From NCBI GenBank assembly GCA_000997385.1, contig LCBT01000001.1, positions 177,493-241,492 of the forward strand: 64,000 nucleotides of DNA, given 5' to 3'. Position 1 is the first letter of the stretch; every line of letters begins with the position of its first letter. The notes beneath the pieces are model-generated. The model had not been told where the DNA came from. It saw only the letters and a program-made list of their open reading frames with translations, and did no database searches. Origin of the DNA: Candidatus Daviesbacteria bacterium GW2011_GWA1_41_61. Its GTDB lineage: Bacteria > Patescibacteriota > Microgenomatia > Daviesbacterales > UBA10151. Of this stretch, positions 7,763-54,849 are shown in pieces. Made by a program: the position numbers and the translations under genes.

Positions 7763-7781
7763 AGTGCATTTTTCAAGTACA

Positions 7782-9849: not shown

Positions 9850-9852
9850 TTT

Positions 9853-38080: not shown

Positions 38081-40068
38081 TTAGATACCCTTTGATATAT
38101 CTTTACATTTTGGGAATTATAGATCTCCTTTAAGTCAAGATCTCTAACATCCGCGGCAAACTTTTGTCCCCAAACCAAATAAACATAATCAATTTTGTAT
38201 TTACCAAGAAACTGGTTAATATTGTCCGCAGATTTATCTCCAAAAATAAGTTTCCTTTCTTCAAACAAACTGTCTGCTTTGTAACCCATAATATCAACCT
38301 GTTCTTGGTCGGCAGCCCAGGTTCTTCTTCCTGAAAAAGCGGAGATGTAACCTGTATCATACCAGGAGTAAATTGGCACAGGAGGATAATATTTATCTCT
38401 TTCATACTTATTAAATGGCGCTGTTAAAATAATTGAGTTTTCAGTTGAATTTTCTCTTAAAGACTCCAGAGCCTTTACCTCTTCAAAAGTAACCTTCGAC
38501 AATGGTTGGTTAGAATAAAACTGCCAGAGCAAGCCGATCTGAGTAGGTACAGCTAAAACCATAATAATAAGGCTAAAAAAAAACTTAGCATAAGATGATT
38601 TAATTTTAGCAATTAAGATCGAGGCGCTTACTGCTGCCAGAAAGCCAAAAAATAATAAAAAATACTGATTATATTGAATAACGTTCCAGGCAACTCCTTT
38701 TTGGACAAACAAAACCGGAAGCAAAAATGAAGCAGCTGTAACTGACAGAAAGAATAAGTTAAACGGGTGTTTAAAAATATTCCCTTTTAAATACTGCCCC
38801 ACTGCCAAAAATCCTAAAAACCTCATCCCCAAGTTTCCGAATAAAAATATTAGCAGCGCTGTTGTTTCCAATTGGATAACTCTTTTGATATTACCCTCTG
38901 ATAAATAAGTCTGGCGTCTTAACTCCATATCAAGCCAATTTAATCTATCCGGAACCACTACCATAGTCCTGATAAACCACCACGGCTGCCAAACTAAAAA
39001 TTCCTGGGAGCTTTCATTGTTGGGAAGATAAAGGATTAAAGCCGCTACCAGAGTAGTAAAAAAAAGTAATAGTGTTTTAAAGTACCTTTTACTGAGGATC
39101 TCCCATAAACCAACTATCAGTAATCCCCCTAATATCAATGTACCGGCATAAACTTTAAACTCAATAACCGTACCTCCCAAAAGTGCAGTTAGTAAAAACA
39201 GGTTATTTGTTCTATTTTGTAGGTACTTGTAAAAAAAATACAAAAAGGCAGTCAGTATAATAAAAGCTGAGGCATGAGGAGGGTTTCCTAATACCGATTG
39301 AGTTTGAGAAACCCAGAAAATAGCTTCGCCGTTTAAATTGCCGTAACGAGGCAGAGTTAATAAATAACCAAAACTGCCGGCAAAGTAAGTAAAAATCATC
39401 GCCCAAATACCGGCAGAAAAACTTTTTGACCAAAGGCGAACAAAAATAAAACTGCCCAGCCCCAACAGAAGAGAAAATAAAACCGGTATGAATCGGAAAT
39501 AGATATCAAAACTGGAAAATCTAAACAGCCGACCCATTTCCGACATTAGCAAATCAACAAAAAAATGATAGTTTTGCAACTTGTGACCGGCATATTCAGG
39601 GTTTTGGAAAGGAAAAACATTACTCTTCATCTCTTCCATTAAGGCAACATGCCAAATCCCATCATGACCATGAGAGCTCCAGAAATAATAACCTTCCGAG
39701 TAAGGAAAACCTGAGGGGGCATTGACTACCACCTGACCTGTTACACCGACCGCAAGAACAGTCAGGAAAATGATTACTGTTTTTTTAGGGTAATTAAAAT
39801 TAAACCGAAACAGCTCTTTTCTGAATTTAAAAAATATGACTAATCCCGCCAAGGGAATCACCCACATTAAAAACCGAAGGTTAAATACGGCTAAAATATA
39901 TGCCAGTAAAGTAAAGACAACCAAACCGACAACTGTAGACAAAGTATATTTTTCTAAAATTGATAGCGGGGAAACCTTCAAAAGTTTAATTATACCGAAA
40001 CCAAGCGCCGTAAAAATTACTAAGCTCAGGGCTAAAAACAATAAACCAAAGATAATTTGGATAAACAT
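38077..40068 (-). CDS. polytopic membrane protein, uncharacterised GT-C-like family (HDGIWH motif); paralog of the C-terminal half of 40071..43550
   Basis: 663 aa. HGHDGIWHVALMEEMKSNVFPFQNPEYAGHKLQNYHFFVDLL. About 13 TM helices and a C-terminal soluble domain. Confidence 0.45.
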   Translation of the reverse strand: MFIQIIFGLLFLALSLVIFTALGFGIIKLLKVSPLSILEKYTLSTVVGLVVFTLLAYILAVFNLRFLMWVIPLAGLVIFFKFRKELFRFNFNYPKKTVIIFLTVLAVGVTGQVVVNAPSGFPYSEGYYFWSSHGHDGIWHVALMEEMKSNVFPFQNPEYAGHKLQNYHFFVDLLMSEMGRLFRFSSFDIYFRFIPVLFSLLLGLGSFIFVRLWSKSFSAGIWAMIFTYFAGSFGYLLTLPRYGNLNGEAIFWVSQTQSVLGNPPHASAFIILTAFLYFFYKYLQNRTNNLFLLTALLGGTVIEFKVYAGTLILGGLLIVGLWEILSKRYFKTLLLFFTTLVAALILYLPNNESSQEFLVWQPWWFIRTMVVVPDRLNWLDMELRRQTYLSEGNIKRVIQLETTALLIFLFGNLGMRFLGFLAVGQYLKGNIFKHPFNLFFLSVTAASFLLPVLFVQKGVAWNVIQYNQYFLLFFGFLAAVSASILIAKIKSSYAKFFFSLIIMVLAVPTQIGLLWQFYSNQPLSKVTFEEVKALESLRENSTENSIILTAPFNKYERDKYYPPVPIYSWYDTGYISAFSGRRTWAADQEQVDIMGYKADSLFEERKLIFGDKSADNINQFLGKYKIDYVYLVWGQKFAADVRDLDLKEIYNSQNVKIYQRVSK

Positions 40069-40070
40069 CT

Positions 40071-43000
40071 CTATTTTAAAACTTCATAAATATCAACTTC
40101 GCGATTATTATAAATATGATCTAATCGTAACTTCTCTTTATCTAAAAAACTATTAAATATTTTTGGCAAGTAAATATACTTTATATTACTATCATTTAAA
40201 AATTTTCTCGACCACTCGGCATCTTTACCCCTAAAGAAATCCTGGGCCGAAACCAAACGTTTTTTATAATCATTTTGGAAAATCTCCTGCTGTATTTCAT
40301 CCTCTAGAAAAGTGGTTTTACCGGAAAAAGCTGATACATAGGAAGTGGTTTCATAGGCAAACAAAGGATAGGGCGCTTGAAATTTTTTTCTCAGGTTTTC
40401 ATCATAAGGATAAGTTACAACTACCCCATCAGGCTGCTTTTGAAGCCATTCTAAAGCTTCCAGCTCAGCAAAGCCTATACCAGAAGGTGGTTGTCCCTCA
40501 AAAGAACTTTTAAAGGTAGCAGCGCTACTGATTGGGGTAATAAGTAAGATAGCTGCCACTAAAGAGAAAGTAGTGATTCTAAAATAGTTATTACCAATTA
40601 GGTTCATTTTTCGTATAACATAGACAATAGTGACCGCAGAGGCCAAAGCAGTAAAATATAATAGATAGTAGAAAAACTGGATAGAATTCCAGTTATTTCC
40701 CTTCTGGATAAAAAGCAAAGGAATAACCAAAGAGAAAATGGATAACAAAAATATTAAGGAAAATTCTAAATTCTTCCAAATTTTTCTCTTTAAAAATGAT
40801 CCCACCACTCCAAAAGATAAAAATCTAGTCCCTAAATTCCCCACAATAAACAATCCTAAAGCCAAAGCTTCACTTGTAATAAATTTCAGCCATTCTCCTC
40901 TTTCAAAATAGGCCACTCTTGCCTGTGACAACTTAAGCCATCCTACCCTGTCGGAAAAATCAACCATCGAATGGACAAACCAAAAAGGAGAAAAGACTAA
41001 AAGCCCTCCCGCTCCACTGTTTTGAGGTAAAAAAACCACTAAAGAAAGTGCCGCTGAAGCAATAAAAACTAACAACAAAAATTTTTTCTTGGCAAAAATT
41101 AATTGCTGCAGGGAGATTAAGAATAAACTACCCAGCACTAAAAGTCCGGCATAAACTTTAAACTCAATAAGTGATCCAACCAACAAAACTAAGATCAGGC
41201 AGGTAATTTTACTACCTTGGTTAACTAAATGTCTAAAAAGCAAGACAATGGCTACCATCAATACTAGGGAAATGGCAAAGGGAGGGTTGAGGTTAAAAGA
41301 CACCGGCTGGTTAACCCAAAAAGTTGATTCTCCACCCCAGCTTTTACTTTTCAAATATTCCACAATCCAACCGAAACTCCCACCAAAATAAACAAAATAC
41401 AAAGAGGTTAAGGTTATTAACTTATTTTTAAATAACCGCGTCACTAAAAGGTAAGTACCTAAACCTAATAATAAAGAAAGTAGCAGCGGATAAAACCGGT
41501 ACAAAAGGTCTAATATCGGCACAGTAGAAATTTTGTTAGTCTGGGCCACTAATAGATCATAAAAATAATGGTAATTGTTTAATAATGTCCCTGAAAATGC
41601 TGGATTTTGAGGAGGAATCTCTTTGACTAACTGATTAACCAAGGCCTGATGCCAGATACCGTCATGTCCTGTTGGTCCTTGAAAGCCGATACCAAAATCA
41701 TAAACCCACCCGGAACGCATCATCCCCAAAGACTGAAAAATTATTCCCCCAATTATTATTGCGCCAGTTATTAAATAGCTTGGGGAAAGTATTTTCTTTA
41801 ATTGGCCAGTTACATCTACTTCTAGATAAACTCTCTTGATAAAAAAAACTGCTAAGGTTAAAAAAGGATAGATAAAGATTAACCATCCTAATTTCAGATA
41901 ACCTAGCAGATAGGAAAGTAAGGTGAGTAACACAAATCCTAAACAAATAGAGATGAATAATTTAAACATTGAGGACTCACTTTGAAGATACCGGGCAAGT
42001 AAAAATCCGGGAATAAATAAAACTCCTATCACAAAGAGCGCAAATTTTATAAACTGCCAGGATAAATTGACAGTTACACCGACAATATCGACAGACCGTT
42101 TATCCGTCAAACCTAAAGATCGGTAATCTGTACTTTCTTGGGAGTTAATAGCCTGAAGGATCAGCCCATCAATTGAAGATACTTTGCCGTCTATATCAAT
42201 ATCCCGGGGTAAAAATTTCACCTCTTTTCTTCTTCCTGCCTCATTAGTGTAACTTAAAAGATACTCCTCCCCGAATTTTTTAATATCTAAACCACTAATT
42301 TTACCTTCATCTAAAACTAATCTTCTGCCGTAAGTCACATCATCTAAAACCCGGGTGGGGAAAGTGGCAAAATTTAACTGCTGACAAGATTTTAAAAGAC
42401 AAATTTCCTCTTGCCCCTCCACATATTGGCGGATATCCCGAAATAAGCTGCCATCCTTATTATAAAACCAACCAGCCCGGTAATAAGGATTCATAAACCA
42501 GACTGATTTTTGGGATGATTCTTTAGGATCATCAGCGATAATAATCTGTTCTGGAGAAATATCAGGAAATTGTTCCTTGTACCACTTAGCAAAGTCACTC
42601 ATAATAACAAGTTTTAATTGACCTGATTGTCTTTTACTGGCTAAAAATTTCATCTGTTGGCTATACTCTGGACCGTATTTTGGCCAAGAATAAGAATTTT
42701 CTAGTCCTACCACCACCTGATTTACCTGGTTAAATTTCTGATTGGTATAAAGATCGATCAACTTAGAAAAATAATTTATATCTAAATTGTGATAATCGAT
42801 ATAATCGTTGGCCTGAAGGCTATAAGTGCTTTCTTGCACTCCATCACCATAACCGTTAATCGGATCACGAGAGGCCCATTGCATCATCACCACTGGTAAT
42901 TTGCTATCTTTGTTCTGGGCTGGAAATAAAGCATTAACCTTAGAAGGGTAATATGGAGTGGACCAATATTGTCCCCAGATTTGATAATTATCAGTAGTAT

Positions 43001-43550
43001 ATTGATCGGCTACAATTAAGGCTGCCTCAATTTGGTATTTTTTTTCCATATAATCCAGAGAATAAGCATCAATCCACCAAGCCCCAACAGACTTAGGATA
43101 AAAACCAAAAACATTTTTGAAGTTACCAAAAGCGCTGTCAATTAATTTTTCCCTTTCAGCTATCTCATAACCGATCAAAAAGACACTGCCCGCATAATGC
43201 CAGCTTTCTGACTGACGGTAACTGACTCCAGCTTCCTTGTTCCAATTGGGGGTTATCTCTAAAAAGAGGCCAACCTCATCAGCAGGAGACGCTGATTTGA
43301 CTATCTTGACTAAATCTGGATCTTTTAAAACATCAAAACGGACCAGCCAAGTGGCAGGAATATTTTGCTGCCTTAAAATTTCCATTTGCCCCAAAATAGC
43401 CTCAGAAGGTTTTTGATCTTCCATCTCCCAAAAGTCCGATCCCCGGACAGGATTTACTACTGAAACAAAGGAGTTATTTTGAGCCTCAACTAAATCCGTG
43501 TTCATTAAAAACAATAAAGATATGATTAAAAAAACTAAATATTTAACCAC
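40071..43550 (-). CDS. large fusion protein: signal peptide, ~480 aa extracytoplasmic domain of unknown function, then GT-C-like polytopic membrane domain (HDGIWH family)
   Basis: 1159 aa. N-terminus MVKYLVFLIISLLFLMNTDLVEAQ is a signal peptide. The C-terminal domain has GHDGIWHQALVNQLVKEIPPQNPAFSGTLLNNYHYFYDLL, matching the adjacent 663 aa gene. Confidence 0.5.
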   Translation of the reverse strand: MVKYLVFLIISLLFLMNTDLVEAQNNSFVSVVNPVRGSDFWEMEDQKPSEAILGQMEILRQQNIPATWLVRFDVLKDPDLVKIVKSASPADEVGLFLEITPNWNKEAGVSYRQSESWHYAGSVFLIGYEIAEREKLIDSAFGNFKNVFGFYPKSVGAWWIDAYSLDYMEKKYQIEAALIVADQYTTDNYQIWGQYWSTPYYPSKVNALFPAQNKDSKLPVVMMQWASRDPINGYGDGVQESTYSLQANDYIDYHNLDINYFSKLIDLYTNQKFNQVNQVVVGLENSYSWPKYGPEYSQQMKFLASKRQSGQLKLVIMSDFAKWYKEQFPDISPEQIIIADDPKESSQKSVWFMNPYYRAGWFYNKDGSLFRDIRQYVEGQEEICLLKSCQQLNFATFPTRVLDDVTYGRRLVLDEGKISGLDIKKFGEEYLLSYTNEAGRRKEVKFLPRDIDIDGKVSSIDGLILQAINSQESTDYRSLGLTDKRSVDIVGVTVNLSWQFIKFALFVIGVLFIPGFLLARYLQSESSMFKLFISICLGFVLLTLLSYLLGYLKLGWLIFIYPFLTLAVFFIKRVYLEVDVTGQLKKILSPSYLITGAIIIGGIIFQSLGMMRSGWVYDFGIGFQGPTGHDGIWHQALVNQLVKEIPPQNPAFSGTLLNNYHYFYDLLVAQTNKISTVPILDLLYRFYPLLLSLLLGLGTYLLVTRLFKNKLITLTSLYFVYFGGSFGWIVEYLKSKSWGGESTFWVNQPVSFNLNPPFAISLVLMVAIVLLFRHLVNQGSKITCLILVLLVGSLIEFKVYAGLLVLGSLFLISLQQLIFAKKKFLLLVFIASAALSLVVFLPQNSGAGGLLVFSPFWFVHSMVDFSDRVGWLKLSQARVAYFERGEWLKFITSEALALGLFIVGNLGTRFLSFGVVGSFLKRKIWKNLEFSLIFLLSIFSLVIPLLFIQKGNNWNSIQFFYYLLYFTALASAVTIVYVIRKMNLIGNNYFRITTFSLVAAILLITPISSAATFKSSFEGQPPSGIGFAELEALEWLQKQPDGVVVTYPYDENLRKKFQAPYPLFAYETTSYVSAFSGKTTFLEDEIQQEIFQNDYKKRLVSAQDFFRGKDAEWSRKFLNDSNIKYIYLPKIFNSFLDKEKLRLDHIYNNREVDIYEVLK

Positions 43551-44991
43551 TTTTAAGACTCCTCAGATCAGCTAATAATACTTTCCCCTTAAAAGAAATG
43601 ACTAAAGCATAAACTATAATCCCTAAAGTGACAGCTAATATCAGAGTAAAAACGTCCCGGACAAAATTTTGGGCAAATAAGTAAACAGTGCCAGCCATAA
43701 CTGACGAGGCCACCACTGGCCAGGCTAGAGCGTTTAAAACCCGCACCACTAAAACTCTTTTTACTAAGATAACGGGCAGGAGGGAGGTAAAAGATATCAC
43801 AAATGAAGCCAAAGCCACACCCAGATATCCATATTTTAAAACTAACAGCGGGGTTAAGACCCAAGTAGAAACCGTCCACAAAATCATCAATTTTAAAGTC
43901 GTCTTAATATGCCCAATGGCATTTAAGGTATTGGTAAAGGTAGTTGAGATAACCGCCCAAAAGGTGGAAAAAGCAAAAAAGTAAAAACCGAGTAGTGCTG
44001 GCTGCCACTTAGAAGAGATAACGTAGGTGACTAAAGAAGGCAAAATTGCTGCCAGCCCAAACAACGCTGGATAAACCAGCAGAGCAGTAACAAAAAGTGA
44101 TTTTTCCACAGCCCGGCCTAAATTGTCTTTATTCCCCTGTAATCTGGAAAAGGCCGGAAAAGAGATCCGGATAATAATATTCATCATCTCTAAAGGCAAA
44201 AAGGCCATATTTTGAGCCCAAGTGATAAAACCTATTCCCAATGGTCCAACCATCCCCGCCACCACCAAGGGAACTAATCTATCCTTCACCAAAGCTAGCA
44301 AGCTGTTAGCCTGAAAAGGCAAACCAAAGGTTAAAAGTTTTTTGGCGGCGGTTTTTTCGATTCCTAAGCTTAACTTTACCGGAGCCAAAATATAAATCAG
44401 TGAGGTGCCACTCAATCCTCTGGCTAAAGCAGCGATGGAAAAGCTCCAAATTCCTAAGTTAGCTAAAACAGTAATAATCAGCAACCCGTTAAAAATTAAG
44501 GTTTCGACGATTTCTACCGCCACTAAAGGCTGAAACCTTAGCTCCCTCTCCAATAAGACTGCCGGCACTACTTTTAAAGATGATAGCAAAAACGATATTC
44601 CTAACACCCGTACCAACCAAACACCGGCCTCATCTAAACTATAAATCTGGCCAATGAGGGGGGCTCCCAAAATAACTATTAAGCTTATACTGAGCACTAA
44701 AAGCTGCTGGATAGTAAAGACTGTTTTAATATCATCTTGGGTAATATCTTCTTTCTTTTGAATCAAGGAAGCAGCAAGTCCAATATCAGAAAAAAAAGCC
44801 AAAAAGACAATCACTGCAGTAGCAATATTAAAAATACCTAAAGTTTCTACCGGCAGAGTTCTGGCTAAAATAACATTTAAGGTAACAAAACTAATAGCCC
44901 GCAGGGCTATTTGCCGGGCTGTCAAACTCATAAACGAAGAGGCAGCTCTCTTTTTAATCTCTGATAAAGATAAAGATTGTCCTTCTTTCAT
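43543..44991 (-). CDS. Wzx-like flippase (MOP superfamily polysaccharide biosynthesis protein)
   Basis: 482 aa with about 12-14 TM helices. The N-terminus (ARQIALRAISFVTLNVILARTLPVETLGIFNIATAVIVF) is typical of Wzx/MATE-like flippases. Confidence 0.6.
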   Translation of the reverse strand: MKEGQSLSLSEIKKRAASSFMSLTARQIALRAISFVTLNVILARTLPVETLGIFNIATAVIVFLAFFSDIGLAASLIQKKEDITQDDIKTVFTIQQLLVLSISLIVILGAPLIGQIYSLDEAGVWLVRVLGISFLLSSLKVVPAVLLERELRFQPLVAVEIVETLIFNGLLIITVLANLGIWSFSIAALARGLSGTSLIYILAPVKLSLGIEKTAAKKLLTFGLPFQANSLLALVKDRLVPLVVAGMVGPLGIGFITWAQNMAFLPLEMMNIIIRISFPAFSRLQGNKDNLGRAVEKSLFVTALLVYPALFGLAAILPSLVTYVISSKWQPALLGFYFFAFSTFWAVISTTFTNTLNAIGHIKTTLKLMILWTVSTWVLTPLLVLKYGYLGVALASFVISFTSLLPVILVKRVLVVRVLNALAWPVVASSVMAGTVYLFAQNFVRDVFTLILAVTLGIIVYALVISFKGKVLLADLRSLKSG

Positions 44992-44994
44992 AAT

Positions 44995-46233
44995 TTATCT
45001 AAATAAACCATTTAAGTAATAAGACAACCAACGGCGTAGCGGCTGTATTTGAACTATCACTCCAGCCAAATATAGAAAAAAGCCCAAACCTGTTGCTAAG
45101 TTAGCTAAATCTCTGACAGGAGTATCAAACAGCCTAGCCTCAACATTGTGCTTGCCTGGCCCCAAGATAAAAGTAATGAGTCCCAAGCTGTTATCCTTAT
45201 AGCTTATCTCTGCCTCTTTGCCGTCAACTAAAACTCTCCAGTTTGGAAAATAGAATTGTGACAGCCTGATAATAGAGTGCGTTTTAGTCTCAGTTTTAAA
45301 AGAGATCCAATTAGTGCCAGACTGATAGTCTGCAATTTGAGATTCTCCCGTTAAGACCTGATAGCGGGGGATTGTTGGCTTGACTGAAGATTCTTCAACT
45401 GAAGACGGCAAAAAATCTGCTCCTGACCGCTCAATCCGATAGATGTATCCTAAGCCACTTTCACCAGAACGGACATAATCTCGTTCTAAAATTAGGGGTA
45501 CAATATAAAAAGAAGCCAGTAGTAAGCTTAACACTAAAGAAGCCAGGCTTAATTTGAACAGTTTAAAATTTGAGTGTAACGAAAATTTCAAGCTCTGCTT
45601 AAAATCCCTTCTGCTTAAAAGAGTGGATAGAAGAAACACCACCGAGGCCGGCAAAAATAACATTGCGATAATATGATGAGAAAGAACCGATATTGCTGCA
45701 ACTAAAGATAATATTAAAACACTACCTTCGGCAGGGATACAAATCAAACGCCTTAAAGCCCACACTAAAGCCGGAATCAAAGCTAATACCGCGATTTCCC
45801 CTAAAGAACCGGTTCCTCCATAGATTACTACTGCAGAGGACACCAAACTATAAAAAATGCCCAGAAAAACCTTTTTCTTAGCAGTCCAAAATTTTGGGGC
45901 CATCAGATAGACAAAAAGATAAGCCACCAAACCAAAAAGAGAAAAGGTAACTCTGACTGCTAAAAGAAAGCTGTGGGTAAGAAGATAGCCCGCTTCCCCC
46001 AGATAATAAGGCAAAGGCGCGTAGTAATTAAATAGGGGATAACCGTACATTTGACCTAAATCAGGAACCCAGCGGCAGGGGATCTGACCATCGCGCAGGC
46101 ATTTATCGATCTGATAAACCCGCATGGTCTGATTGTAGCTGGTTTTAATAAAATAAGGAGAAAAGGTCAAAGCCAAAAACAACACCAAAGTGAATAAAAA
46201 TCCTATCAAAAAAGATCTGTTTTTAAGCATCAT
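44995..46233 (-). CDS. polytopic membrane protein, QIPCRWVPD...FNYY family (paralog 1 of 4); putative GT-C-type
   Basis: I place the start at the internal Met (MMLKNRSF), because the ORF-track start overlaps the upstream gene by 86 nt. Motif: MRVYQIDKCLRDGQIPCRWVPDLGQMYGYPLFNYYAPLPYYLGE. Confidence 0.45.
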   Translation of the reverse strand: MMLKNRSFLIGFLFTLVLFLALTFSPYFIKTSYNQTMRVYQIDKCLRDGQIPCRWVPDLGQMYGYPLFNYYAPLPYYLGEAGYLLTHSFLLAVRVTFSLFGLVAYLFVYLMAPKFWTAKKKVFLGIFYSLVSSAVVIYGGTGSLGEIAVLALIPALVWALRRLICIPAEGSVLILSLVAAISVLSHHIIAMLFLPASVVFLLSTLLSRRDFKQSLKFSLHSNFKLFKLSLASLVLSLLLASFYIVPLILERDYVRSGESGLGYIYRIERSGADFLPSSVEESSVKPTIPRYQVLTGESQIADYQSGTNWISFKTETKTHSIIRLSQFYFPNWRVLVDGKEAEISYKDNSLGLITFILGPGKHNVEARLFDTPVRDLANLATGLGFFLYLAGVIVQIQPLRRWLSYYLNGLFR

Positions 46234-46237
46234 CGAA

Positions 46238-47494
46238 TTAAGAATCGGCTTTCTTGGGAAAAAAATGATAGATAAAATACAACGCCCCTCCGGCAAATCC
46301 GGTCTGAAGCAGACTGCGGGCAAAATTATAATCCGGGTTAATACTTAAAATCTTCCAGATTGATGGGGAATTATAAAGAGAGCTGTTAAGTGGTGAAAAA
46401 AGTCCCAATGATAACCCGGGATCAAAGAAAAAAATCATTCCCGCAAAAGTGACCATCATAATGGCAGCCGGAAGGATAGATAAAGATGCTTCTTTCACTA
46501 AGCTTAGTATTATAAAGGGTGCCAGCCATAAAAACCACTGGGGATGGAAATGGGTAAAGATAAAGAAGGGTATCAAGGCGATAAAAAAGCGTTGCCAGAG
46601 ATTCTCTACTCGAGCCGGGATGGTTAACATTACTAAGTAGAGAAAGGTCAGTAATATTAAAAAAAGGAAGATGGCTTCACCGCCGGAAACGGCTATTTGA
46701 GGGTATAAACTTTTAAGAGTTTGGTTGGCTACTAAAGCTGTAGAGCGAAAACCGAAAGAGTGAATAAAAGGTAAAATAGTCACAAGATATGGCAGCAAAC
46801 CTAAAGTCACCACACCGACTCTTTCCTTCCAACTAGTAGCTAAGGAGGCTAAAGGGATTAAAAAGAAAAGAGGATAAATCTTAAAGGAAGCTCCAGCACC
46901 CAAAAGCAGCGCACTCAACAGTAAATTCTTAAGCCCCCTCCCCTTTTGCCTTAGTACCAGATATAAAGCCAAGGTCGAAAAGAAAACGGGAATAACATCA
47001 AATTGGCCCATCATATAAGTAGCATAGAGATTGACCGGATTAAATATCCATAAAGTAAAGGCTAAAAATTTCTCTTTTGGTGAATCAAAAAACTTAGCCA
47101 GTAGAAAAGCCAGGGGAAGGTCAAAAAGAAGGTATGGAATTTTTAAGAGTAATAAATGTAGGTAAAGTTGTGATTGCCCTAAGACCTGTGCCACATCAAC
47201 TAGGAAGTTTAAATGGAAAGAAGGATTTATCCAACCTACGGTGAGCCAGCTAAAGCCTCCTAAGAAGAAATAAACCATGGGAGGATAGTTAAAAGGATAG
47301 GCAGGATAAGTCTTTACAATAGGATCACCCGCAGAAAGACCAGATACAAAATCATAAAAGTTTAAAAGATTACCCCCTCCGATAACATAACCTGCCAAAT
47401 CAAGGTGTCGGATATCGGAATGATAAGTGATGGCACCCAAAGTAAGGCGCAAAATCAAACCAACAGTTAATACTATCCAAAACTTTTGACTCAT
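46238..47494 (-). CDS. polytopic membrane protein, GT-C-like (DUF2029/GT87-like mannosyltransferase features)
   Basis: 418 aa. IFNPVNLYATYMMGQFDVIPVFF loop motif, about 11 TM helices. Confidence 0.4.
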   Translation of the reverse strand: MSQKFWIVLTVGLILRLTLGAITYHSDIRHLDLAGYVIGGGNLLNFYDFVSGLSAGDPIVKTYPAYPFNYPPMVYFFLGGFSWLTVGWINPSFHLNFLVDVAQVLGQSQLYLHLLLLKIPYLLFDLPLAFLLAKFFDSPKEKFLAFTLWIFNPVNLYATYMMGQFDVIPVFFSTLALYLVLRQKGRGLKNLLLSALLLGAGASFKIYPLFFLIPLASLATSWKERVGVVTLGLLPYLVTILPFIHSFGFRSTALVANQTLKSLYPQIAVSGGEAIFLFLILLTFLYLVMLTIPARVENLWQRFFIALIPFFIFTHFHPQWFLWLAPFIILSLVKEASLSILPAAIMMVTFAGMIFFFDPGLSLGLFSPLNSSLYNSPSIWKILSINPDYNFARSLLQTGFAGGALYFIYHFFPKKADS

Positions 47495-47502
47495 TTAGAA
47501 AA

Positions 47503-49197
47503 TTATAACTTAAATTTCTTAAAATGGGGATTTAAAATCCACCATAAAGCTAGCAGTAACCCTGATAAAGACATGATATCTAAAACCTTTTTAAAGTTGG
47601 TTTCAGTAAAACTAATTTTTACCTGATGCTCCCCGGGAGGGACTTTTAGAGTAATCTGGCCAAAGGGTTTCCCAGGGATAATAGCTGCTTGCTGCCCATC
47701 AATTTCTGCCTGCCAACCAGGAAAGAAATACTTATTGAAGTTAATTATCATTGGATTCAAAGCAGAAGTCTCAATTACAACATCAAGCTCACTTCTCTTA
47801 ATAATATTTTTAATGTCCCCGCCCTTGGCACTAACCAGGGGATAATTTTTATCGGGACGCAGTTGGGTATCTTTAGGCAGCCTAAAATATTCTTCTTGTA
47901 TCTGTAAATATTCTTCATTGGCTACTGGTACAGGAATATAGCGTTTCAGATAATAATCATCTCCTCTTCCTAAAAAATCTTCCGGCCGGAAATTACTAAT
48001 ATTTAAAACTATCACCAGCCCAATAAGGGTTGCCGTCATAATCTTAGGTCTTCCTAATTTACCTAAGGTCATGATTAAAAGAGGCGTTATAAAAGTCACC
48101 ATTATTAAAAACCTCCAAGGAAACTGAAAATAGGGGAGGAGGGGTAAATTTTGCCAAAGAGGAGACGAGCGGTGGTTCATCATCATTACAGAAACCGCTA
48201 AGACCAGATAAGCCCAGATCAAAACCACTTTTTCTCCGGGGGAAAACCTCCTCCAAGAAATCGCCAGGATTGGCACTCCTATAATTACTAAACCTAGGTT
48301 GATGGTCCCGATAAAGAAAGGCATCCCATCGTAAGGCCCTGGCACTGAAGCTCCATACCCCCAGTGAGGGGTAATTAGCTGCCTAAGTGTGGGAAAGTGA
48401 TCGACAAAATTAAAAACCGTATCGTATTTCATAAGAACACTTTCCACTATCGCCGGCAGCCAAAAGTAAAGGCTGATTAAAAGACCTAAGAAGACAGTTA
48501 ACATCAGCCCGACTAGACTGAACCATTTTTTAGTCTGTAAAAAGATTCTTAAAAACCCCAGTAAGAAAATAAAAGGCAAAAACATATAAGCGGTGATATT
48601 GTGCGACAGCACTAGGGAAGAGAAGGCCACCCCCCCAATACCCAGCCAACGGTAATTAATCCGTTTAGAATTTTCCACTGATGTCAACTTCACCACTGAT
48701 AAGGCAACCAGGGGTAAGATCGCAAAGGAGACTATCTCCCCGATGGCCCCCCGAATATAGAGATCCACTGCCCGGTAAGGGGTGTAAACATAGATTAAAG
48801 CTCCGGCTAAAGCAAGCCCGCGGTTTTTAACTAACTCTTTAAGCAACCAATACATTCCCAAAGCAGACAAGATAATACTTATAAAAAAGACAGCCTTAAT
48901 ACTATCTACCAACCCTAGACTTAAAAGATGAAAAATTTCTGCTATATAAAAGGGTAAGGGGAATAAAAAATTAAACAAAGGGTAGCTAAAACCAAAACTT
49001 AAATCAGGGGCCAGGCGGGGAGGAATTTGTCCCATGGAAATCGCCCGGTCCATCTGATGAAACCAGCCAATATGCATATCATCGGAAGCTCCATAAAAAC
49101 CAGGCACTAAAAGGGCCCATCCTGCAGGTAATGATAATAAAATCACCCAAACCCAAGTTTTAGTGAAAAATTCTTTGACGTTTTCCATACCAGGCAA
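47503..49197 (-). CDS. polytopic membrane protein, QIP..W.PD family (paralog 2 of 4, divergent motif QIPPRLAPD)
   Basis: 564 aa. ASDDMHIGWFHQMDRAISMGQIPPRLAPDLSFGFSYPLFNFLFPLPFYIAE. The start may instead be the internal Met at 49188. Confidence 0.5.
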   Translation of the reverse strand: MPGMENVKEFFTKTWVWVILLSLPAGWALLVPGFYGASDDMHIGWFHQMDRAISMGQIPPRLAPDLSFGFSYPLFNFLFPLPFYIAEIFHLLSLGLVDSIKAVFFISIILSALGMYWLLKELVKNRGLALAGALIYVYTPYRAVDLYIRGAIGEIVSFAILPLVALSVVKLTSVENSKRINYRWLGIGGVAFSSLVLSHNITAYMFLPFIFLLGFLRIFLQTKKWFSLVGLMLTVFLGLLISLYFWLPAIVESVLMKYDTVFNFVDHFPTLRQLITPHWGYGASVPGPYDGMPFFIGTINLGLVIIGVPILAISWRRFSPGEKVVLIWAYLVLAVSVMMMNHRSSPLWQNLPLLPYFQFPWRFLIMVTFITPLLIMTLGKLGRPKIMTATLIGLVIVLNISNFRPEDFLGRGDDYYLKRYIPVPVANEEYLQIQEEYFRLPKDTQLRPDKNYPLVSAKGGDIKNIIKRSELDVVIETSALNPMIINFNKYFFPGWQAEIDGQQAAIIPGKPFGQITLKVPPGEHQVKISFTETNFKKVLDIMSLSGLLLALWWILNPHFKKFKL

Positions 49198-50848
49198 CTC
49201 CCCCGGTTATCAAAAGTGAAATCAATGTTATTATATTACCCAAGTTTCTAATTGGGGTATTCGTTAATTTCCCAGCCACTTGATATTCTCCGGGCTGTAA
49301 ATCAATCATCACCCGGCCCATTAAATTATCATGAGAGTAGGGAAACTTTTGTCCATTGACTGTCACTTGCCACACCGGAAAATCAAAAACCGGTATTTCC
49401 ACCACTGCTTTCTCAGAAACATTTATGGAAAAATTCCAGCGGTTGGAGCGGTTGTCAAAATCTCCCAATGTAACTTGACCGGACACAATGATTGGTCTGT
49501 TAGGAGCTCTCTCTTGAGGTTCATAGGCTGTTTTGGGAAGGTAATCCAAAATGCTGGCTTTTTGCTGAGTCTCCCACATCTCTCCTGACAACTTTTTCCG
49601 GTCAGTCAGTGTTGGGAAAAAGTGCTCCGGTTTAAAAAAACTCCAATTTAAGGCCATGGTGGAAACTATTATTAAAACCAGTACCACTTTTTTGGCCCGA
49701 CCTGCCAGGATCAATATAAGGGCTCCTCCCAAAAGGCTGGCAGAAAAAATAGCCAGTGACAGGAAACGCCAGGGGAATTGAAAGAAGCGCAAAAGGCCGA
49801 TGGCTTCCCAGACAAAAGCTGATCTATTATGGGTCATAAAAACTGACATTAAAAATGCTAAGGCCAGCAGGATGATTAAGATGAAACCTCTGGCCGGCAG
49901 CTTGTTTAAAAAATCTTTTTTAACCAGCCAACCTAAAAGACCTAAAACTACCGCTGCCGGCACTAGCCACCAATGAGGCCAACCGATTTGAAAAGACAAA
50001 CTATCAAAAGGACCGGGGATTGAAGCCCCATACCCGAAGCTGCGGTCAAAAAACAGCTGCCCGACAGTTACAAAATGCGCCCTAAAATTTAAATCCATTC
50101 TGGTTAAAGTGTCTGTTCGTACTAAAGAAGTTTCCACAAAGGCCGGCAGAAGAAAAAAAGAGGCCAGACCAAAACCTAAAAGTAAACTGAAAACTGTTGT
50201 CTTAAGGTGAGCCCATTTTTGAATCCATAAAAACAAGACCCCCCAGATAAAAATTACCGGCACAAAAAGCAAGGTCATAATATTGTGGGTAGTTAAAAAA
50301 GCTGCCGAGGACAAACTTAAGCCTAAAAAATTTCTTTGGGAGGGCTTTTTGATAAGTCTCAGCAGAAAGTAAAAAACCAGCGGGATTAAAGCCAAAGCAA
50401 AACTTTCTGCCACTGCTCCCCGCACATAAGCGTCTAAAGCCCGGTAAGGAGCAAAAAGGTACAAAGCAGCAGCTGTAATACCGCTTAATCTCCCCCACAG
50501 TTGCCTGGCTAAAAGATACATCGTGACTCCCCCAGCCACCAAGGGAATTAAAAATAAAGCTTTGGCTGCGCCCAGATAGCCTAAAATATAGCTTAAGATT
50601 GCACCCAAATAGTAAGGGAAAACACTATAGTAGTTAAACAACGGGAAGCCGTTACCATACCCCATATCAGGTACCCACCGGCAGGGGATCTGCAGATCTT
50701 CCAGACACTTTCTCATCTCAAAAATCCTCATCACCTGCAGATCGTCATGGTGAGAAAAAAACCCCGGCAAAAACAAGGGCCAACTGACCAAAACAAAGGA
50801 CAGGGTAAAGAAAATTACCAACCAATATTTAGCGATGATTTTTAGCAT
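49160..50848 (-). CDS. polytopic membrane protein, QIPCRWVPD family (paralog 3 of 4)
   Basis: 562 aa. SHHDDLQVMRIFEMRKCLEDLQIPCRWVPDMGYGNGFPLFNYYSVFPYYLG. Confidence 0.5.
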   Translation of the reverse strand: MLKIIAKYWLVIFFTLSFVLVSWPLFLPGFFSHHDDLQVMRIFEMRKCLEDLQIPCRWVPDMGYGNGFPLFNYYSVFPYYLGAILSYILGYLGAAKALFLIPLVAGGVTMYLLARQLWGRLSGITAAALYLFAPYRALDAYVRGAVAESFALALIPLVFYFLLRLIKKPSQRNFLGLSLSSAAFLTTHNIMTLLFVPVIFIWGVLFLWIQKWAHLKTTVFSLLLGFGLASFFLLPAFVETSLVRTDTLTRMDLNFRAHFVTVGQLFFDRSFGYGASIPGPFDSLSFQIGWPHWWLVPAAVVLGLLGWLVKKDFLNKLPARGFILIILLALAFLMSVFMTHNRSAFVWEAIGLLRFFQFPWRFLSLAIFSASLLGGALILILAGRAKKVVLVLIIVSTMALNWSFFKPEHFFPTLTDRKKLSGEMWETQQKASILDYLPKTAYEPQERAPNRPIIVSGQVTLGDFDNRSNRWNFSINVSEKAVVEIPVFDFPVWQVTVNGQKFPYSHDNLMGRVMIDLQPGEYQVAGKLTNTPIRNLGNIITLISLLITGGVAWYGKRQRIFH

Positions 50849-52523
50849 GTTTTCGGCTTAAAAAAATTAATACTCCTAAAACTATTATACTAGTTAGGGT
50901 AATTAAATTACCGATCATTCTAACCGGAGTATTATTTAATCTAGCCTCTAAAATATGCTGGCCGGCAGGAATTTTAAAAGTAATCAACCCCAAGCAAAAT
51001 TCCTGACCCCGGCAGTCATTGTTCCAGTGAGTAATTTTTTGATTATCCACCTTCACCTCCATACCGGGAAAATCATATAAAGGGAGTCTTATTAAAGATA
51101 GTTCCCCTGCTGTAAGTACTCCTTTTTGAAAATTACTTCCTTTTTGATAACTGGAAAAGCTTACCTGGCCTTCTAAAACCTCAGGTTGCAATGGAGCCTT
51201 AGAGGTTGGAGGCAAAGTAGCATAAATGGGCAGGTAATCAAAGATGCTGATGGTTAACTGTTTTTCCCAGGATTTACCGGAAAATTTATCAGCATCGGAA
51301 ATATCATACCACTGGTAAGGTTTAAAAAACCCTCCATAGAAAACCATAACAGCAGCTATTAAGGCTACCCCTAAGACTTTGGCCAACTTTACTTGAGGAA
51401 TCAGATAAACAGCTAAGGCTCCCAGAAGTGATAATAAAAAGATGCTGTCTGCCAGTATCCTCCAGGGAAACTGCAGCCAGGTTAACATACTCAAATGTTC
51501 CCAGATAAAGGTGGATTTTTGATGGATTAAAAATAACACCAACAGATCAACTACAGCCAAGGTTAAAATAACTAAGGACAACTTTTTTTGCTTGCGGAAG
51601 TTTAAAACCCCTAAAGCAACCGCCAAAAGACCTGCTGCCCAGTGGATTACTCCGGTAGTCATCGATAAATCATCTCCCGAACCCAGGTAGGAGGAACCAT
51701 AGCCAAAATGGTTGGATAAAAACAGTTGTTCTAAATTTACAAAGTGCTGGCGGTAGTCAAAATATCCGGAAAGCATGGAATCAATATGAACATAAGGTTT
51801 TTCCAAAAGAACCGGCAGGGTAAAAGTAGCTGCCAGCCCTATCCCTAAGACTCCTCCCAGTATTAGCTTTGTTAAAACCTGCCATCTCTTTTCTAAAATT
51901 AACCACAAAAGTGCCCACACTCCGGCAATAGGCAAAAAGATCATGGACATTAAGTTGTGGGTAAAAAGCAGCAGCCCGATAGATAACCCCATCCAGGCTA
52001 AATATTTTACAAAGCCTTTTTTAATCAGCTGGTAGATTGACCAAAAAATTACCGGGAAAAAGACGAAGGCCCAAAATTCACTCAAAGCTCCCCTGACATA
52101 AACATCTACAGCCTTATAAGGGGCATAAGTGTAAAGTATGGCTCCAACCAAAGCCGGCCAGGAACCTAAAAGAGAACGAAGAAAAATAAACATTGTTATA
52201 GCAGAAAAGATAAAACCTAAAATAAACAGTATTTTGACAGCATCGATAAATTGGAATCCTACTAAATTAAAAATCTCTCCCAGATAATAAACACTGGGGG
52301 GGTAATAGATAAACTGGGGGTAACCATATTGGTAACCGGCATCAGGCACCCATCTACAAGGAATTTGCAGATCCTGGATGCATTTATCCAATTGATGGAT
52401 CCTGAAAGCCTGCAGGTCATCCTGCATCCAAAAAAACCCCGGACGAAGTAGTGTATAAAAAGTAGGGATAATTAATAAAATTAAGGCTACTAAAAACTTA
52501 TTACTCTTGAACCAAATAACCAT
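50829..52523 (-). CDS. polytopic membrane protein, QIPCRWVPD family (paralog 4 of 4)
   Basis: 564 aa. WMQDDLQAFRIHQLDKCIQDLQIPCRWVPDAGYQYGYPQFIYYPPSVYYLGE. Confidence 0.5.
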   Translation of the reverse strand: MVIWFKSNKFLVALILLIIPTFYTLLRPGFFWMQDDLQAFRIHQLDKCIQDLQIPCRWVPDAGYQYGYPQFIYYPPSVYYLGEIFNLVGFQFIDAVKILFILGFIFSAITMFIFLRSLLGSWPALVGAILYTYAPYKAVDVYVRGALSEFWAFVFFPVIFWSIYQLIKKGFVKYLAWMGLSIGLLLFTHNLMSMIFLPIAGVWALLWLILEKRWQVLTKLILGGVLGIGLAATFTLPVLLEKPYVHIDSMLSGYFDYRQHFVNLEQLFLSNHFGYGSSYLGSGDDLSMTTGVIHWAAGLLAVALGVLNFRKQKKLSLVILTLAVVDLLVLFLIHQKSTFIWEHLSMLTWLQFPWRILADSIFLLSLLGALAVYLIPQVKLAKVLGVALIAAVMVFYGGFFKPYQWYDISDADKFSGKSWEKQLTISIFDYLPIYATLPPTSKAPLQPEVLEGQVSFSSYQKGSNFQKGVLTAGELSLIRLPLYDFPGMEVKVDNQKITHWNNDCRGQEFCLGLITFKIPAGQHILEARLNNTPVRMIGNLITLTSIIVLGVLIFLSRKHAKNHR

Positions 52524-52553: not shown

Positions 52554-54119
52554 TTAGGGTAATGGGGTGAAAGAACTGCTTTCTAAAGGAAATATTTTAA
52601 ATAATAAAATGGCATCTTGAGGGCGGTTTTCTCCCTTAGCTTTAGGGTATTCTCTCAAAAGTTCCATGTTTTCTAAGGCTTGTGGGAAACGGGATTTGTT
52701 AGCCACAAAATAAGTAGGATGCTCTTTGGCAGCCTGTCTTAGCTCATCAGAGACCTCTGCCCTACCCCCTACTATTGAAATCTTTTTACCTTCTGAAGCT
52801 TCATGGGAATACTTGTCCAGGTAAATCTGCAGCCCATCAGGCAAAGTCCCAAAATACCCTTCCGTCCCCACTACTACCCCTTCTTTCCCAGCCTCCTGGA
52901 TTAAAAACTGGGCAATTTCAGAAAAACCGTAACCGGCGGTCCAATCTTCCAGATAACCTCTCCTTTCACCTTGAGGCAAAGGGACAGCTGCCGGGTTTGT
53001 CAGCAGTTGGAAGCTAAAATAAAGCGGAGATAAAAGCAATACTACCAGCAGCAAGCTGAAACTTAAAAATGGTTTTAAGGGGATCCTTGATCTTAAATAC
53101 TCTACTCCCCAGGCTGCCAGTACGAAAAGCGGCGGTATGGTAAATAGGATATAACGGGCGGTAAAAGTTTTTAAAAGGGCCATCTCAGCTGCCAGAGGTA
53201 TCAGACTCCAGACTAGAACAACTAAAGCCGGGAGGTTTTTAAAAATAAAAGTTAAAGCTATGCCCAAAAAGATAAACAACAGTACCGGCCAGGTTAAAAA
53301 GATCGGAAACCAGTTATTAATGTCCCCCAAATGGGGTAAAAAAGGGTCCAAGGGCCTGCCCACCAAATCCAGGGGTGAAAACATATAGTCCTGATTACGG
53401 GAAGAAAGGTTATTAAAGTTAGGACCCAGCCTTAAGGCGTTATATATCACCAGGCCGATGGTTACAGCCACTGCCCACAGCCCCACCATCTTTAAAAGCC
53501 TGGTCTGCCGTAGCTTAGGAGACCAATCAAAGATTAAAGCGGTCAGGGGCAAAGCCAGAAGACTAAACATCCCCGGAGTTTTAGTTAAAATCCCTCCTCC
53601 TAAAGAAAAACCCAGGATCATCGCTAAATCCAACCTTAATTTTTGAGCCAGCAGTAAGGCTAAATTTAAAGACCAAACGGAAAAGGCTGCCAGCAGGGAA
53701 TCTACCAAAGCCATCCTGTCAAAAAAAACCATTAAAGGGGTGATTACTACCAAAAATGCTCCTAAAAGCCCCACCCTTAAATTAAAAACTCTCCAGCCTA
53801 AAAAACCCACTCCCAGTAAAGTTAGATATCCGGAAAGGACAGATAAGATTCTGCCAGCTAGTAGTGGATCAGCAAAAATTTTAAATAGGGGCATCATGGC
53901 CCACATAAAAAGAGGTGTTTTACCATCAGATAAAGGTAAAAATCTCAGTGTTGGTTCAGCCCTCATTACCTGAGCCCACCTGATATAAATCGCCTCATCA
54001 GCAAAAATTGGCTGTAAAGTTAAATTAGGTAACCTTAAGGAAAAATATAAAGCAGTAATTAATAGGAAGAAGAGTATCTCCCATTGATATCTTTTAAGCA
54101 ACTTAACCATATTTGCCAT
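52554..54119 (-). CDS. ArnT/PMT-like GT-C glycosyltransferase (GT39/GT83), lipid-carrier dependent
   Basis: 521 aa. LTLQPIFADEAIYIRWAQVM first-loop DE motif, about 12 TM helices. Located immediately downstream of, and overlapping, a DPM1/ArnC-like GT2 gene. Confidence 0.65.
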   Translation of the reverse strand: MANMVKLLKRYQWEILFFLLITALYFSLRLPNLTLQPIFADEAIYIRWAQVMRAEPTLRFLPLSDGKTPLFMWAMMPLFKIFADPLLAGRILSVLSGYLTLLGVGFLGWRVFNLRVGLLGAFLVVITPLMVFFDRMALVDSLLAAFSVWSLNLALLLAQKLRLDLAMILGFSLGGGILTKTPGMFSLLALPLTALIFDWSPKLRQTRLLKMVGLWAVAVTIGLVIYNALRLGPNFNNLSSRNQDYMFSPLDLVGRPLDPFLPHLGDINNWFPIFLTWPVLLFIFLGIALTFIFKNLPALVVLVWSLIPLAAEMALLKTFTARYILFTIPPLFVLAAWGVEYLRSRIPLKPFLSFSLLLVVLLLSPLYFSFQLLTNPAAVPLPQGERRGYLEDWTAGYGFSEIAQFLIQEAGKEGVVVGTEGYFGTLPDGLQIYLDKYSHEASEGKKISIVGGRAEVSDELRQAAKEHPTYFVANKSRFPQALENMELLREYPKAKGENRPQDAILLFKIFPLESSSFTPLP

Positions 54120-54849
54120 CTAAATCATCTTTTCTGATCCGACCCATATCTTTTAAAGCCTCCAGTGCATCATGGATCAGTTGGACTCTTTCGGTCCCCA
54201 CATGGTGCCAAGTAATCGGCACTTCAGCAATTTTAAAACCCATTTTTCTGGCTAAAAATAACATCTCAATATCAAAACCAGCATTCACAGCAGCCCCTTT
54301 GGCCTTCATCCCCTGCCAAATTTGTAGCATCTTAGGAAAAACTTCCCTGATTGCTTTTTGGTTAAAGGCTTTAAAACCACATTGGGTATCAGCAAAGGGC
54401 AAACCTAAACTGAGGTTTCGGATAACAGCAAAACCCCAGGCAGAAAGTTTTCTGATTAAAGGGGCCCCTTCCCTGCCCTTTCTAGAACCTATGACCACAT
54501 CAAACCCCTCTTCAAACTTAGGAAAAAATTTCTCTATCTGATTAATAGGGGTGGACTGATCCAGATCAGTAAAAACAATTATTTCACCTGAAGCCTTTAA
54601 CATCCCGCTGATGACTGTTAAAGCTTTACCGCCATGGGGATTCCTGATTAACTTAAAACCCTTTTTGCTTTTAATAAACTGCTCAATCACATCGGCAGTC
54701 TTATCGGTGGAACCGTCATCGACAATCAAGACTTCATAAGGGTAAGCTTGTTTTTCCAGGTAAGAAGAAACTTTATCCAAAACCCCGGAAGAGAGGTTTT
54801 TCTCTTCATTATATGCTGGAATAACTACTGACAGTTTAAGGTTACCCAT
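54103..54849 (-). CDS. GT2 polyprenol-phosphate sugar synthase (DPM1/ArnC-like)
   Basis: LSVVIPAYNEEKNL...VLIVDDGSTDKT, IIVFTDLDQSTP and FADTQCGFKAFNQKAIREVF. Confidence 0.8.
   Translation of the reverse strand: MGNLKLSVVIPAYNEEKNLSSGVLDKVSSYLEKQAYPYEVLIVDDGSTDKTADVIEQFIKSKKGFKLIRNPHGGKALTVISGMLKASGEIIVFTDLDQSTPINQIEKFFPKFEEGFDVVIGSRKGREGAPLIRKLSAWGFAVIRNLSLGLPFADTQCGFKAFNQKAIREVFPKMLQIWQGMKAKGAAVNAGFDIEMLFLARKMGFKIAEVPITWHHVGTERVQLIHDALEALKDMGRIRKDDLDGKYG

Follow-up and report, generated by a model that had tools for sequence, protein, structure and literature searches.

We analysed a 64,000-nucleotide (nt) stretch of contig LCBT01000001.1 from Candidatus Daviesbacteria bacterium GW2011_GWA1_41_61, referred to here as the window, in which positions 44995–52523 hold a run of related membrane-protein genes. 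According to the list of open reading frames (ORFs), this span comprises five minus-strand genes rather than four. Four of them encode paralogs of the type described by the Pfam family PF10131 and are labelled A, B, C and D'; the fifth, gene X, is unrelated and lies between C and D'. For positions of genes and motifs see Table 1. A sequence-only reading of this DNA had described four tandem paralogs, all of about 560 amino acids (aa). The homology stood, with blastp E-values down to 2e-119, but the array is interrupted by X, and the length applies to A, B and C only. D' has lost about 170 residues internally.

In an all-against-all blastp comparison within the window, A and B share 36% identity (E = 2e-119), B and C 30% (2e-67) and A and C 29% (6e-63), and D' aligns with B in two segments of 33% (2e-30) and 28% (2e-14) identity. 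These E-values are far beyond chance, and A, B, C and D' are homologous. X gave no match to any of the four in the same comparison. Its homologs carry the GT87/PIG-M domains PF09594 and PF05007, and it matches UU73_C0001G0203 of Candidatus Daviesbacteria bacterium GW2011_GWA1_41_61 with 100% identity. For C the ATG at 49188 is the more likely start, favoured by orthologs and a gene caller. The D' ORF (44995–46323) reaches 442 aa only from a TTG at 46323 that overlaps the preceding gene X; this start is unsupported, and the ATG used by gene callers is the likely one. An ENA metagenome scaffold (L001) is 99.88% identical to positions 39160–60714 of the window (21.5 kb), with two indels.

Table 1. 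Genes of the PF10131 block and its neighbours in the window, with motif positions (TM, transmembrane)
Feature	Position	Strand	Description
Paralog A	50829–52523	minus	564 aa; PF10131-type GT-C
QIPCRWVPD of A	52341–52367	minus	exact translation
Paralog B	49160–50848	minus	562 aa; PF10131-type GT-C; copy used for the structural model
DD of B	50741–50746	minus	after first TM helix
Cys48...Cys56 of B	50681–50707	minus	first-loop Cys pair
QIPCRWVPD of B	50666–50692	minus	exact translation
QFPWRFL of B	49760–49780	minus	before helix 359–380
Paralog C	47503–49197	minus	564 aa from TTG; probably 561 aa from ATG 49188
QIPPRLAPD of C	49003–49029	minus	exact translation
Gene X	46238–47494	minus	418 aa; GT87/DUF2029/PIG-M-like GT-C, between C and D'
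Paralog D'	44995–46233	minus	412 aa from ATG 46233 (likely start); short form of the D orthogroup
TSYN of D'	46126–46149	minus	DD replaced by Y-N
QIPCRWVPD of D'	46060–46086	minus	exact translation
GT2 (GT-A) enzyme, soluble	54103–54849	minus	248 aa; PF00535, 103 bits
PMT_2-type GT-C	52554–54119	minus	521 aa; conserved immediately upstream of A
Wzx-type flippase	43543–44991	minus	Polysacc_synt_3, PF13440, 173.5 bits; directly downstream of the PF10131 block
Polytopic protein	40071–43550	minus	1159 aa; orthologs carry DUF3863; conserved next operon gene after Wzx

The Pfam model PF10131 (PTPS_related, gathering threshold 26.4 bits) matched B with 48.3 bits and D' with 38.2 bits. A scored 24.9 bits, just under the threshold, and for C the Pfam scan gave no PF10131 match. 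Since A and C match B over their full length in blastp, all four belong to one homologous family, of which the curated model captures only two copies (B and D'). A PTPS-related Pfam family had been faintly suspected from the sequence, and this suspicion was correct. PF10131 is a member of the GT-C (glycosyltransferase C) clan CL0111, with its function listed as unknown (PMC7801869). NCBI names homologs of B "6-pyruvoyl-tetrahydropterin synthase-related protein", which is a misleading legacy of the historical Pfam label; a literature search on this product name returned nothing beyond a transcriptomics paper. None of the four copies has a model in NCBIfam; C gave only a meaningless 15-bit match to MmpA. 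Hundreds of B orthologs with 52–61% identity are present in Microgenomates and Daviesbacteria metagenome bins. In an exhaustive HMMER search the family comprised 11,317 representative clusters (50% identity) at E ≤1e-3 and 2,161 at E ≤1e-30.

The structural model of B matched AglB (score 16.4), AftD (16.3), ArnT (15.8), ALG12 (15.3), Pmt4 (14.8) and PglB (14.7). All of the top 20 structural matches have the GT-C fold and Foldseek agrees, as the proposal of a GT-C-like architecture had anticipated. A profile of the B family found no match among all PDB chain sequences, so the link to solved structures is one of fold only. The WWD motif is absent from all copies, and no window protein matched STT3 (PF02516) in the Pfam scan. 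Scores against PMT_2 (PF13231) remained below the cut-off of 26.1 bits (D' 17.5 bits, A 17.4 bits), and aligning the B profile with the adjacent PMT_2 protein by hhalign gave no signal (probability 1.7%). The YfhO family (PF09586) is closer. A reached 21.0 bits against its threshold of 28.5 bits, the other copies having no match, and hhalign of the B profile with the YfhO ORF of the window (32153–34540) gave a probability of 41% (E = 2.7e-4, 187 columns). This alignment pairs QIPCRWVPD..G.P with IPLWNP..G.P of YfhO, and the C-terminal domain of the family matches that of the same ORF in blastp (5e-6). From these profile and motif matches we regard the PF10131 proteins as related to YfhO, as its closest or sister family, but not as members of it.

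In the model of B the first TM helix (TM1, residues 9–26) is followed by a loop with H-H-D35-D36 and by a juxtamembrane helix (37–50) in which Cys48 lies near the end. Next come the turn Q-I-P-Cys56-R-W-V-P-D, a short hairpin and about ten further TM helices. The C-terminal part consists of a β-sandwich (453–528) and a final TM helix (532–558). A Kyte-Doolittle count of TM segments with the positive-inside rule was too noisy to establish the topology and was not relied on. The first-loop motif QIP.R..PD translates as expected in all four copies and reads QIPCRWVPD in three of them. Its tail had been given as FNYY in three copies, which does not hold for A (FIYY).

We scored motif conservation over 102 members of the family, taken from the window and from related loci. 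Four elements are all but invariant across A, B, C and the full-length D proteins of relatives: the first Asp of the DD after TM1 (the second is occasionally Asn or Glu), the Y-x-R-G-A-x-x-E that precedes TM4, the H-N that follows TM5, and F-Q-F-P-W-R-F immediately ahead of helix 359–380. DD is found in 26/27 A orthologs (the A-type protein of locus L033 has DN), in 24/26 complete B orthologs (DN in L018 and L027), in 34 of the 37 C orthologs (DE in the other three) and in 6/6 full-length D. In the window it appears as MQDD in A, HHDD in B and ASDD in C. A further contains the first-loop Cys pair, YVRGALSE, THNL and LQFPWRIL; C contains GASDD, YIRGAIGE, SHNI and FQFPWRF. The full-length D proteins (about 569 aa) have HHDD, APYHALDFYVRGAMGE and FQFPWRF. 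D' has no DD, the Arg of the RGA motif is replaced by Thr, and FQFPWRF is deleted.

These positions recall landmarks of solved GT-C enzymes. An acidic pair after TM1 makes up the active site (ArnT D55/E56, Pmt1 D77/E78), a residue ahead of TM4 is paired with one behind TM5 (ArnT D158/K203), and an Arg at the N-terminal end of TM10 binds the carrier phosphate (PglB R375, AglB R426, STT3B R459) (PMC7801869). The Arg of FQFPWRF sits at the N-terminal end of helix 359–380 of the B model and would correspond to the TM10 Arg by its topological position.

Cys48 and Cys56 are the only cysteines of B, and C holds no Cys anywhere. Among 455 first-loop motifs from distinct sequences, 315 have both cysteines, 140 have neither and none is mixed, although these counts are phylogenetically non-independent and essentially amount to orthogroup signatures. 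Because the two residues are present or absent together and the loop is predicted to be extracytoplasmic, the pair in the first extracytoplasmic loop (EL1) of A, B and D most likely forms a disulfide that staples this loop. A second Cys pair, NDCRGQEFC (NDCRxQE[FY]C), lies in an insertion of the C-terminal β-sandwich of A and was seen in 4/4 A orthologs inspected.

C had been singled out as a divergent copy that lost one Cys and the Trp, and neofunctionalisation had been suggested for it. The Trp is indeed lost, but so are both motif cysteines, K-C having become R-A and P-C having become P-P. The state is moreover fixed. All 37 C orthologs read Q-[IF]-P-P-R-[FYL] with neither Cys pair nor Trp; the place of the first Cys is taken by various residues, that of the second always by Pro. 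They all keep the acidic pair after TM1 and the other catalytic motifs. Because the signature is fixed and these motifs are kept, C is better described as an ancient and, to judge from its motifs, catalytically intact orthogroup than as a recent local divergence.

We compared loci around B orthologs, loci around D' orthologs and 30 species-representative loci found with C, and classified their ORFs. The order A-B-C is present in essentially every locus with enough flank, about 30 Microgenomates loci from Daviesbacteria, Woesebacteria and others. The exception is a Shapirobacteria locus (L033), from which only A- and C-type ORFs were recovered. The window proteins share 45–68% identity with their positional orthologs and only 28–38% with the other types. 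Since each of A, B and C has 1:1 orthologs in the same order across loci, the duplications are ancient, and the proposed local four-fold expansion does not describe them. Several GTDB representative records that hold A-B-C loci typical of Microgenomates bear the title "uncultured Gammaproteobacteria bacterium" (L008, L010, L012, L014–L016, L019, L022, L028–L030 and L035); probably the titles of these binned metagenome-assembled genomes are placeholders or wrong labels.

In Daviesbacteria-type loci the order runs GT2, PMT_2, A, B, C, a variable slot, Wzx and a gene for a protein of roughly 1150 aa, and the variable slot is either empty or occupied by X, full-length D, X and D, X and D', or D' alone. 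Gene order is conserved across loci with overlapping junctions or junctions of less than 30 nt. In the window A and B overlap by 20 nt and B and C by 29–38 nt, an overlap that recurs in other loci, and the gaps C/X, X/D' and D'/Wzx measure 8, 4 and 3 nt. Because the junctions are this tight, we consider the genes a single operon that is probably translationally coupled. GT2, Wzx and the GT-C genes form one tightly packed minus-strand operon, conserved in loci L002–L016, L029 and L035. The GT2 protein has no TM segment, and its best NCBIfam matches are PgfS, ArnC and a dolichyl-phosphate hexose transferase, all far under their cutoffs. This is suggestive of a polyprenyl-phosphate-sugar synthase that would supply the donor.

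Taken as a whole, the data are best explained if A, B, C and the full-length D of relatives are GT-C-fold integral-membrane glycosyltransferases of the PF10131 family within a glycosylation operon, and we consider this highly probable. Most likely they would act in a system of GT-A, Wzx and GT-C components and transfer sugars on the outer face of the membrane, with polyprenyl phosphates as the donor carriers. Use of such donors is supported by the context, namely the adjacent GT2 and Wzx flippase. The data show the homology, the fold, the conserved motifs, the synteny and the purifying selection on D'; donor type, topology, disulfide, sequential action and the role of D' are inferred.

We propose the following mechanism. 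In the cytoplasm, the soluble GT2 would attach a sugar to polyprenyl phosphate, and the flippase would move the lipid-linked product, a sugar or glycan, to the outer face. There the PF10131 enzymes, with about 12 TM helices, would form their active site from extracytoplasmic loops. The DD after TM1 could serve as catalytic base and as acceptor or metal ligand, R-G-A-x-x-E before TM4 and H-N after TM5 would contribute to the active site, and the Arg of FQFPWRF before TM10 would bind the phosphate of the lipid carrier. The C-terminal β-sandwich, tethered by the last TM helix, may hold the glycan acceptor. PMT_2, A, B, C, X and, where present, D would each contribute one residue to a glycopolymer or glycoprotein of the cell surface, and the ancient paralogs may differ in the acceptor position or linkage that they serve.

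Several points weigh against this reading, in addition to the non-independent cysteine counts above and the near-saturated synonymous sites of D' below. The match of the GT2 protein to polyprenyl-phosphate-sugar synthases reaches 86 bits, whereas the NCBIfam equivalog cutoff is 500. In the Woesebacteria-type loci GT2 and Wzx are not conserved next to the trio. The assignment of motifs to GT-C landmarks follows topological position and not structural superposition. Finally, a full-text literature search found no biochemically characterised PF10131 member, the family being mentioned only in PMC7801869.

The block may also be read more ambitiously, as a fixed multi-subunit machine for extracytoplasmic glycan assembly in which A, B and C form an obligate hetero-complex and D' is a pseudo-glycosyltransferase that acts as scaffold or acceptor subunit, possibly serving X. 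The hetero-complex is suggested by the invariant order, the overlapping reading frames and a natural B-C fusion; we propose the reading as a whole tentatively, as rather doubtful. The fusion, P0361 (1093 aa), joins a B-type protein with the Cys pair to a C-type protein with PPR and no Cys. P0384 (3329 aa), from a high-GC organism, contains four PF10131 copies, and single-chain fusions were seen in P0361, P0367, P0384, P0424 and P0481. Unless they are artefacts of assembly or gene calling, such fusions suggest joint action of the paralogs in the manner of a Rosetta stone. If D', with its QIPCRW loop and β-sandwich, did serve the small, domain-less, GT87-like X encoded directly upstream, the two would exemplify the split between catalysis and acceptor binding speculated on by Rismondo et al. 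(PMC8035078).

The donor could be of a different kind as well. As the top structural matches of B include oligosaccharyltransferases, a diphosphate-linked oligosaccharide is possible, and A, B and/or C could then act like an oligosaccharyltransferase, ligase or polymerase that transfers en bloc, or polymerises, a Wzx-flipped polyprenyl-diphosphate oligosaccharide. The absence of WWD and of an STT3 match was noted above; the adjacent GT2 and flippase fit monophosphate donors. We consider the oligosaccharide alternative unlikely and retain stepwise transfer from polyprenyl-phosphate sugars by the PF10131 enzymes.

The copy that has truly changed is D', which the sequence-only reading overlooked in favour of C. 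Compared with full-length D, its missing residues comprise EL4, four TM helices and a portion of the linker, and the catalytic signatures are lost as well. It retains the EL1 Cys pair, QIPCRWVPD, the N-terminal module of seven TM helices, the β-sandwich and the C-terminal TM helix. Because an even number of TM helices was removed, the β-sandwich would stay outside the membrane, and AF2 predicts a confident, compact fold for D'. Besides the window, at least six other genomes encode short forms of 386–412 aa as intact ORFs with essentially the same deletion. Their identities to D' are 72% (P0122/L037), 50% (P0123/L006), 41% (P0127/L005) and 37–38% (L012, L007 and L015). All short forms are without DD, the position reading HFDI, HLFT, NYEP and others in the orthologs, yet all keep Q-I-P-C-R-W, both cysteines and a well-conserved β-sandwich. 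In a neighbour-joining tree they form two adjacent groups with long branches, basal in the D clade, and their linkers differ by about 15–20 residues. The deletion may have arisen once or twice. A JGI variant of D' (P0121, 403 aa) lacks nine residues (AKKKVFLGI) of a TM-loop region through a clean in-frame deletion and represents strain-level in-frame indel variation.

Such losses might be expected of a decaying, functionless remnant of full-length D, and the long branches of the short forms as well as the faster evolution of D' (41–50% identity where A, B, C and X show 51–68% in the same genome pairs) point in that direction. However, the recurrence of the same deletion in intact ORFs at 37–72% identity, the preserved topology with its compact predicted fold, and the strong conservation of loop, cysteines and β-sandwich all argue against decay. 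D' is moreover under purifying selection, with a dN/dS of 0.125 against the L037 ortholog, a value that is approximate because the dS of 1.44 is near saturation. This ortholog pair was used since the dN/dS analysis of the four copies that had been suggested has no meaning at 28–36% amino acid identity, where synonymous sites are saturated. A pseudogene is thus very improbable. By its missing motifs and its conservation, D' is very probably a non-catalytic, conserved derivative, and its role is probably that of an acceptor-binding or scaffolding partner.

X accompanies D' in 5/7 loci (it is absent in L007 and L015) and also occurs alone or with full-length D. The link is not significant and the loci are phylogenetically non-independent; X and D' can only weakly be considered an obligate pair. 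Rismondo et al. speculated that small GT-C proteins may need a separate acceptor-binding protein (PMC8035078). The frequent adjacency of X and D' fits this idea, without being obligatory.

That the PF10131 copies are transporters or permeases, or true pterin-related synthases, is barely credible: they are polytopic and the NCBI name of their homologs points to PTPS, but the Pfam and NCBIfam scans returned no PTPS catalytic domain and no transporter family, the GT-C architecture is present in the model, and transporters of the major facilitator superfamily appear in Foldseek with a probability of ≤0.14 and a TM-score of about 0.12 only. Neither of the outcomes that had been named as refuting, assignment to a transporter HMM or a model without GT-C architecture, was observed.

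The remainder of the window confirms the glycosylation-island setting that had been assumed. About 17 GT-C-type genes lie within the 64 kb: nine of the PMT_2 type, one related by blast without a Pfam match (15523–17199), one PIG-V-like gene (18335–19513), the YfhO gene (on the plus strand), the four PF10131 copies and the GT87-like one. The window also encodes many GT2 and GT4 enzymes and two Wzx flippases. For a small genome of the Candidate Phyla Radiation (CPR) this density of extracytoplasmic glycosyltransferases is extraordinary. A second tandem trio of GT-C genes, of the PMT_2 type (21432–23060, 23020–24591 and 24588–26237), shows mutual identities of 30–31% (E = 1e-63 to 1e-75) and has a fourth relative at 36356–38080.

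Positions 38077–43550 encode two paralogous large polytopic proteins of 663 and 1159 aa, which share 36% identity over about 550 aa and had no Pfam match in the window scan. The gene of the 1159-aa protein, whose orthologs carry DUF3863, always follows Wzx in the related loci. This protein could be a polymerase, a ligase or an acceptor-processing component. A cluster of five radical-SAM genes, of which two encode B12-binding domains, lies beside GT2 and GT4 genes at 5298–11376, and a MazG and radical-SAM fusion protein of 501 aa is encoded at 58340–59845. All of these may carry out an unusual sugar modification.

PF10131 is a very large GT-C family with a misleading name, for which the locus supplies a concrete, testable anatomy: DD, RGAxxE, HN, an Arg before TM10, a probable disulfide-stapled loop and a probable acceptor-binding β-sandwich. 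Among the Microgenomates, CPR bacteria that are uncultured and whose envelopes are poorly understood, three copies of ancient divergence are passed on together within a dense surface-glycosylation operon. In our view the fixed A-B-C trio and the conserved, apparently catalytically dead short form are the most interesting details. D' can be regarded as a natural "catalysis-minus" variant that would separate the function of the QIPCRW loop and β-sandwich from catalysis. Current understanding is not overturned; rather, the paradigm of GT-A enzyme, flippase and GT-C enzyme is extended to a new family and lineage.

Regarding known systems, NCBI already names the orthologs after the Pfam family, whose description does not cover the orthogroups A, B, C, D and D'. 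With the solved GT-C-A enzymes (ArnT, PglB, AglB, STT3, AftD, PMT) the copies share an identity of only 9–13%. No HMM of these families exceeds its threshold, the soluble domains differ and WWDYG is absent.

The YfhO family (PF09586) includes YfhO of B. subtilis and S. aureus (the N-acetylglucosamine transferase of lipoteichoic acid), Lmo1079 of Listeria (wall teichoic acid) and PgfM1/PgfM2 of S. mutans. To our knowledge, teichoic acids are not established in the bacteria studied here. Common to YfhO and the PF10131 copies are the GT-C fold, a similar first-loop motif and an extracytoplasmic, β-rich C-terminal domain followed by a terminal TM helix. The C-terminal domains are detectably homologous, and the C-terminus of the NCBIfam model PgfM2 matches the YfhO ORF of the window. 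Both families are also accompanied by a lipid-sugar synthase of the GT-A type and by a flippase (PMC8035078). Unlike YfhO (800–900 aa, a single gene), A, B and C comprise about 560 aa and form a fixed trio, and the EL1 Cys pair is a further difference.

The GacI/GacJ/GacK/GacL system of S. pyogenes likewise unites a TM-less GT2, a Wzx-type flippase and a GT-C enzyme in one operon (PMC8035078). There, however, one GT-C gene takes the place of the six in a row (PMT_2, A, B, C, X, D') found here. GacL belongs to PMT_2 and thus to another family than the PF10131 enzymes, and no small partner like GacJ was identified. For D' a parallel exists in PIG-U/GAB1, a subunit of the glycosylphosphatidylinositol transamidase and a non-catalytic protein of the GT-C fold, to which D' is related by fold only. 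PIG-U keeps the full TM core, whereas D' has given up four TM helices and kept the β-sandwich.

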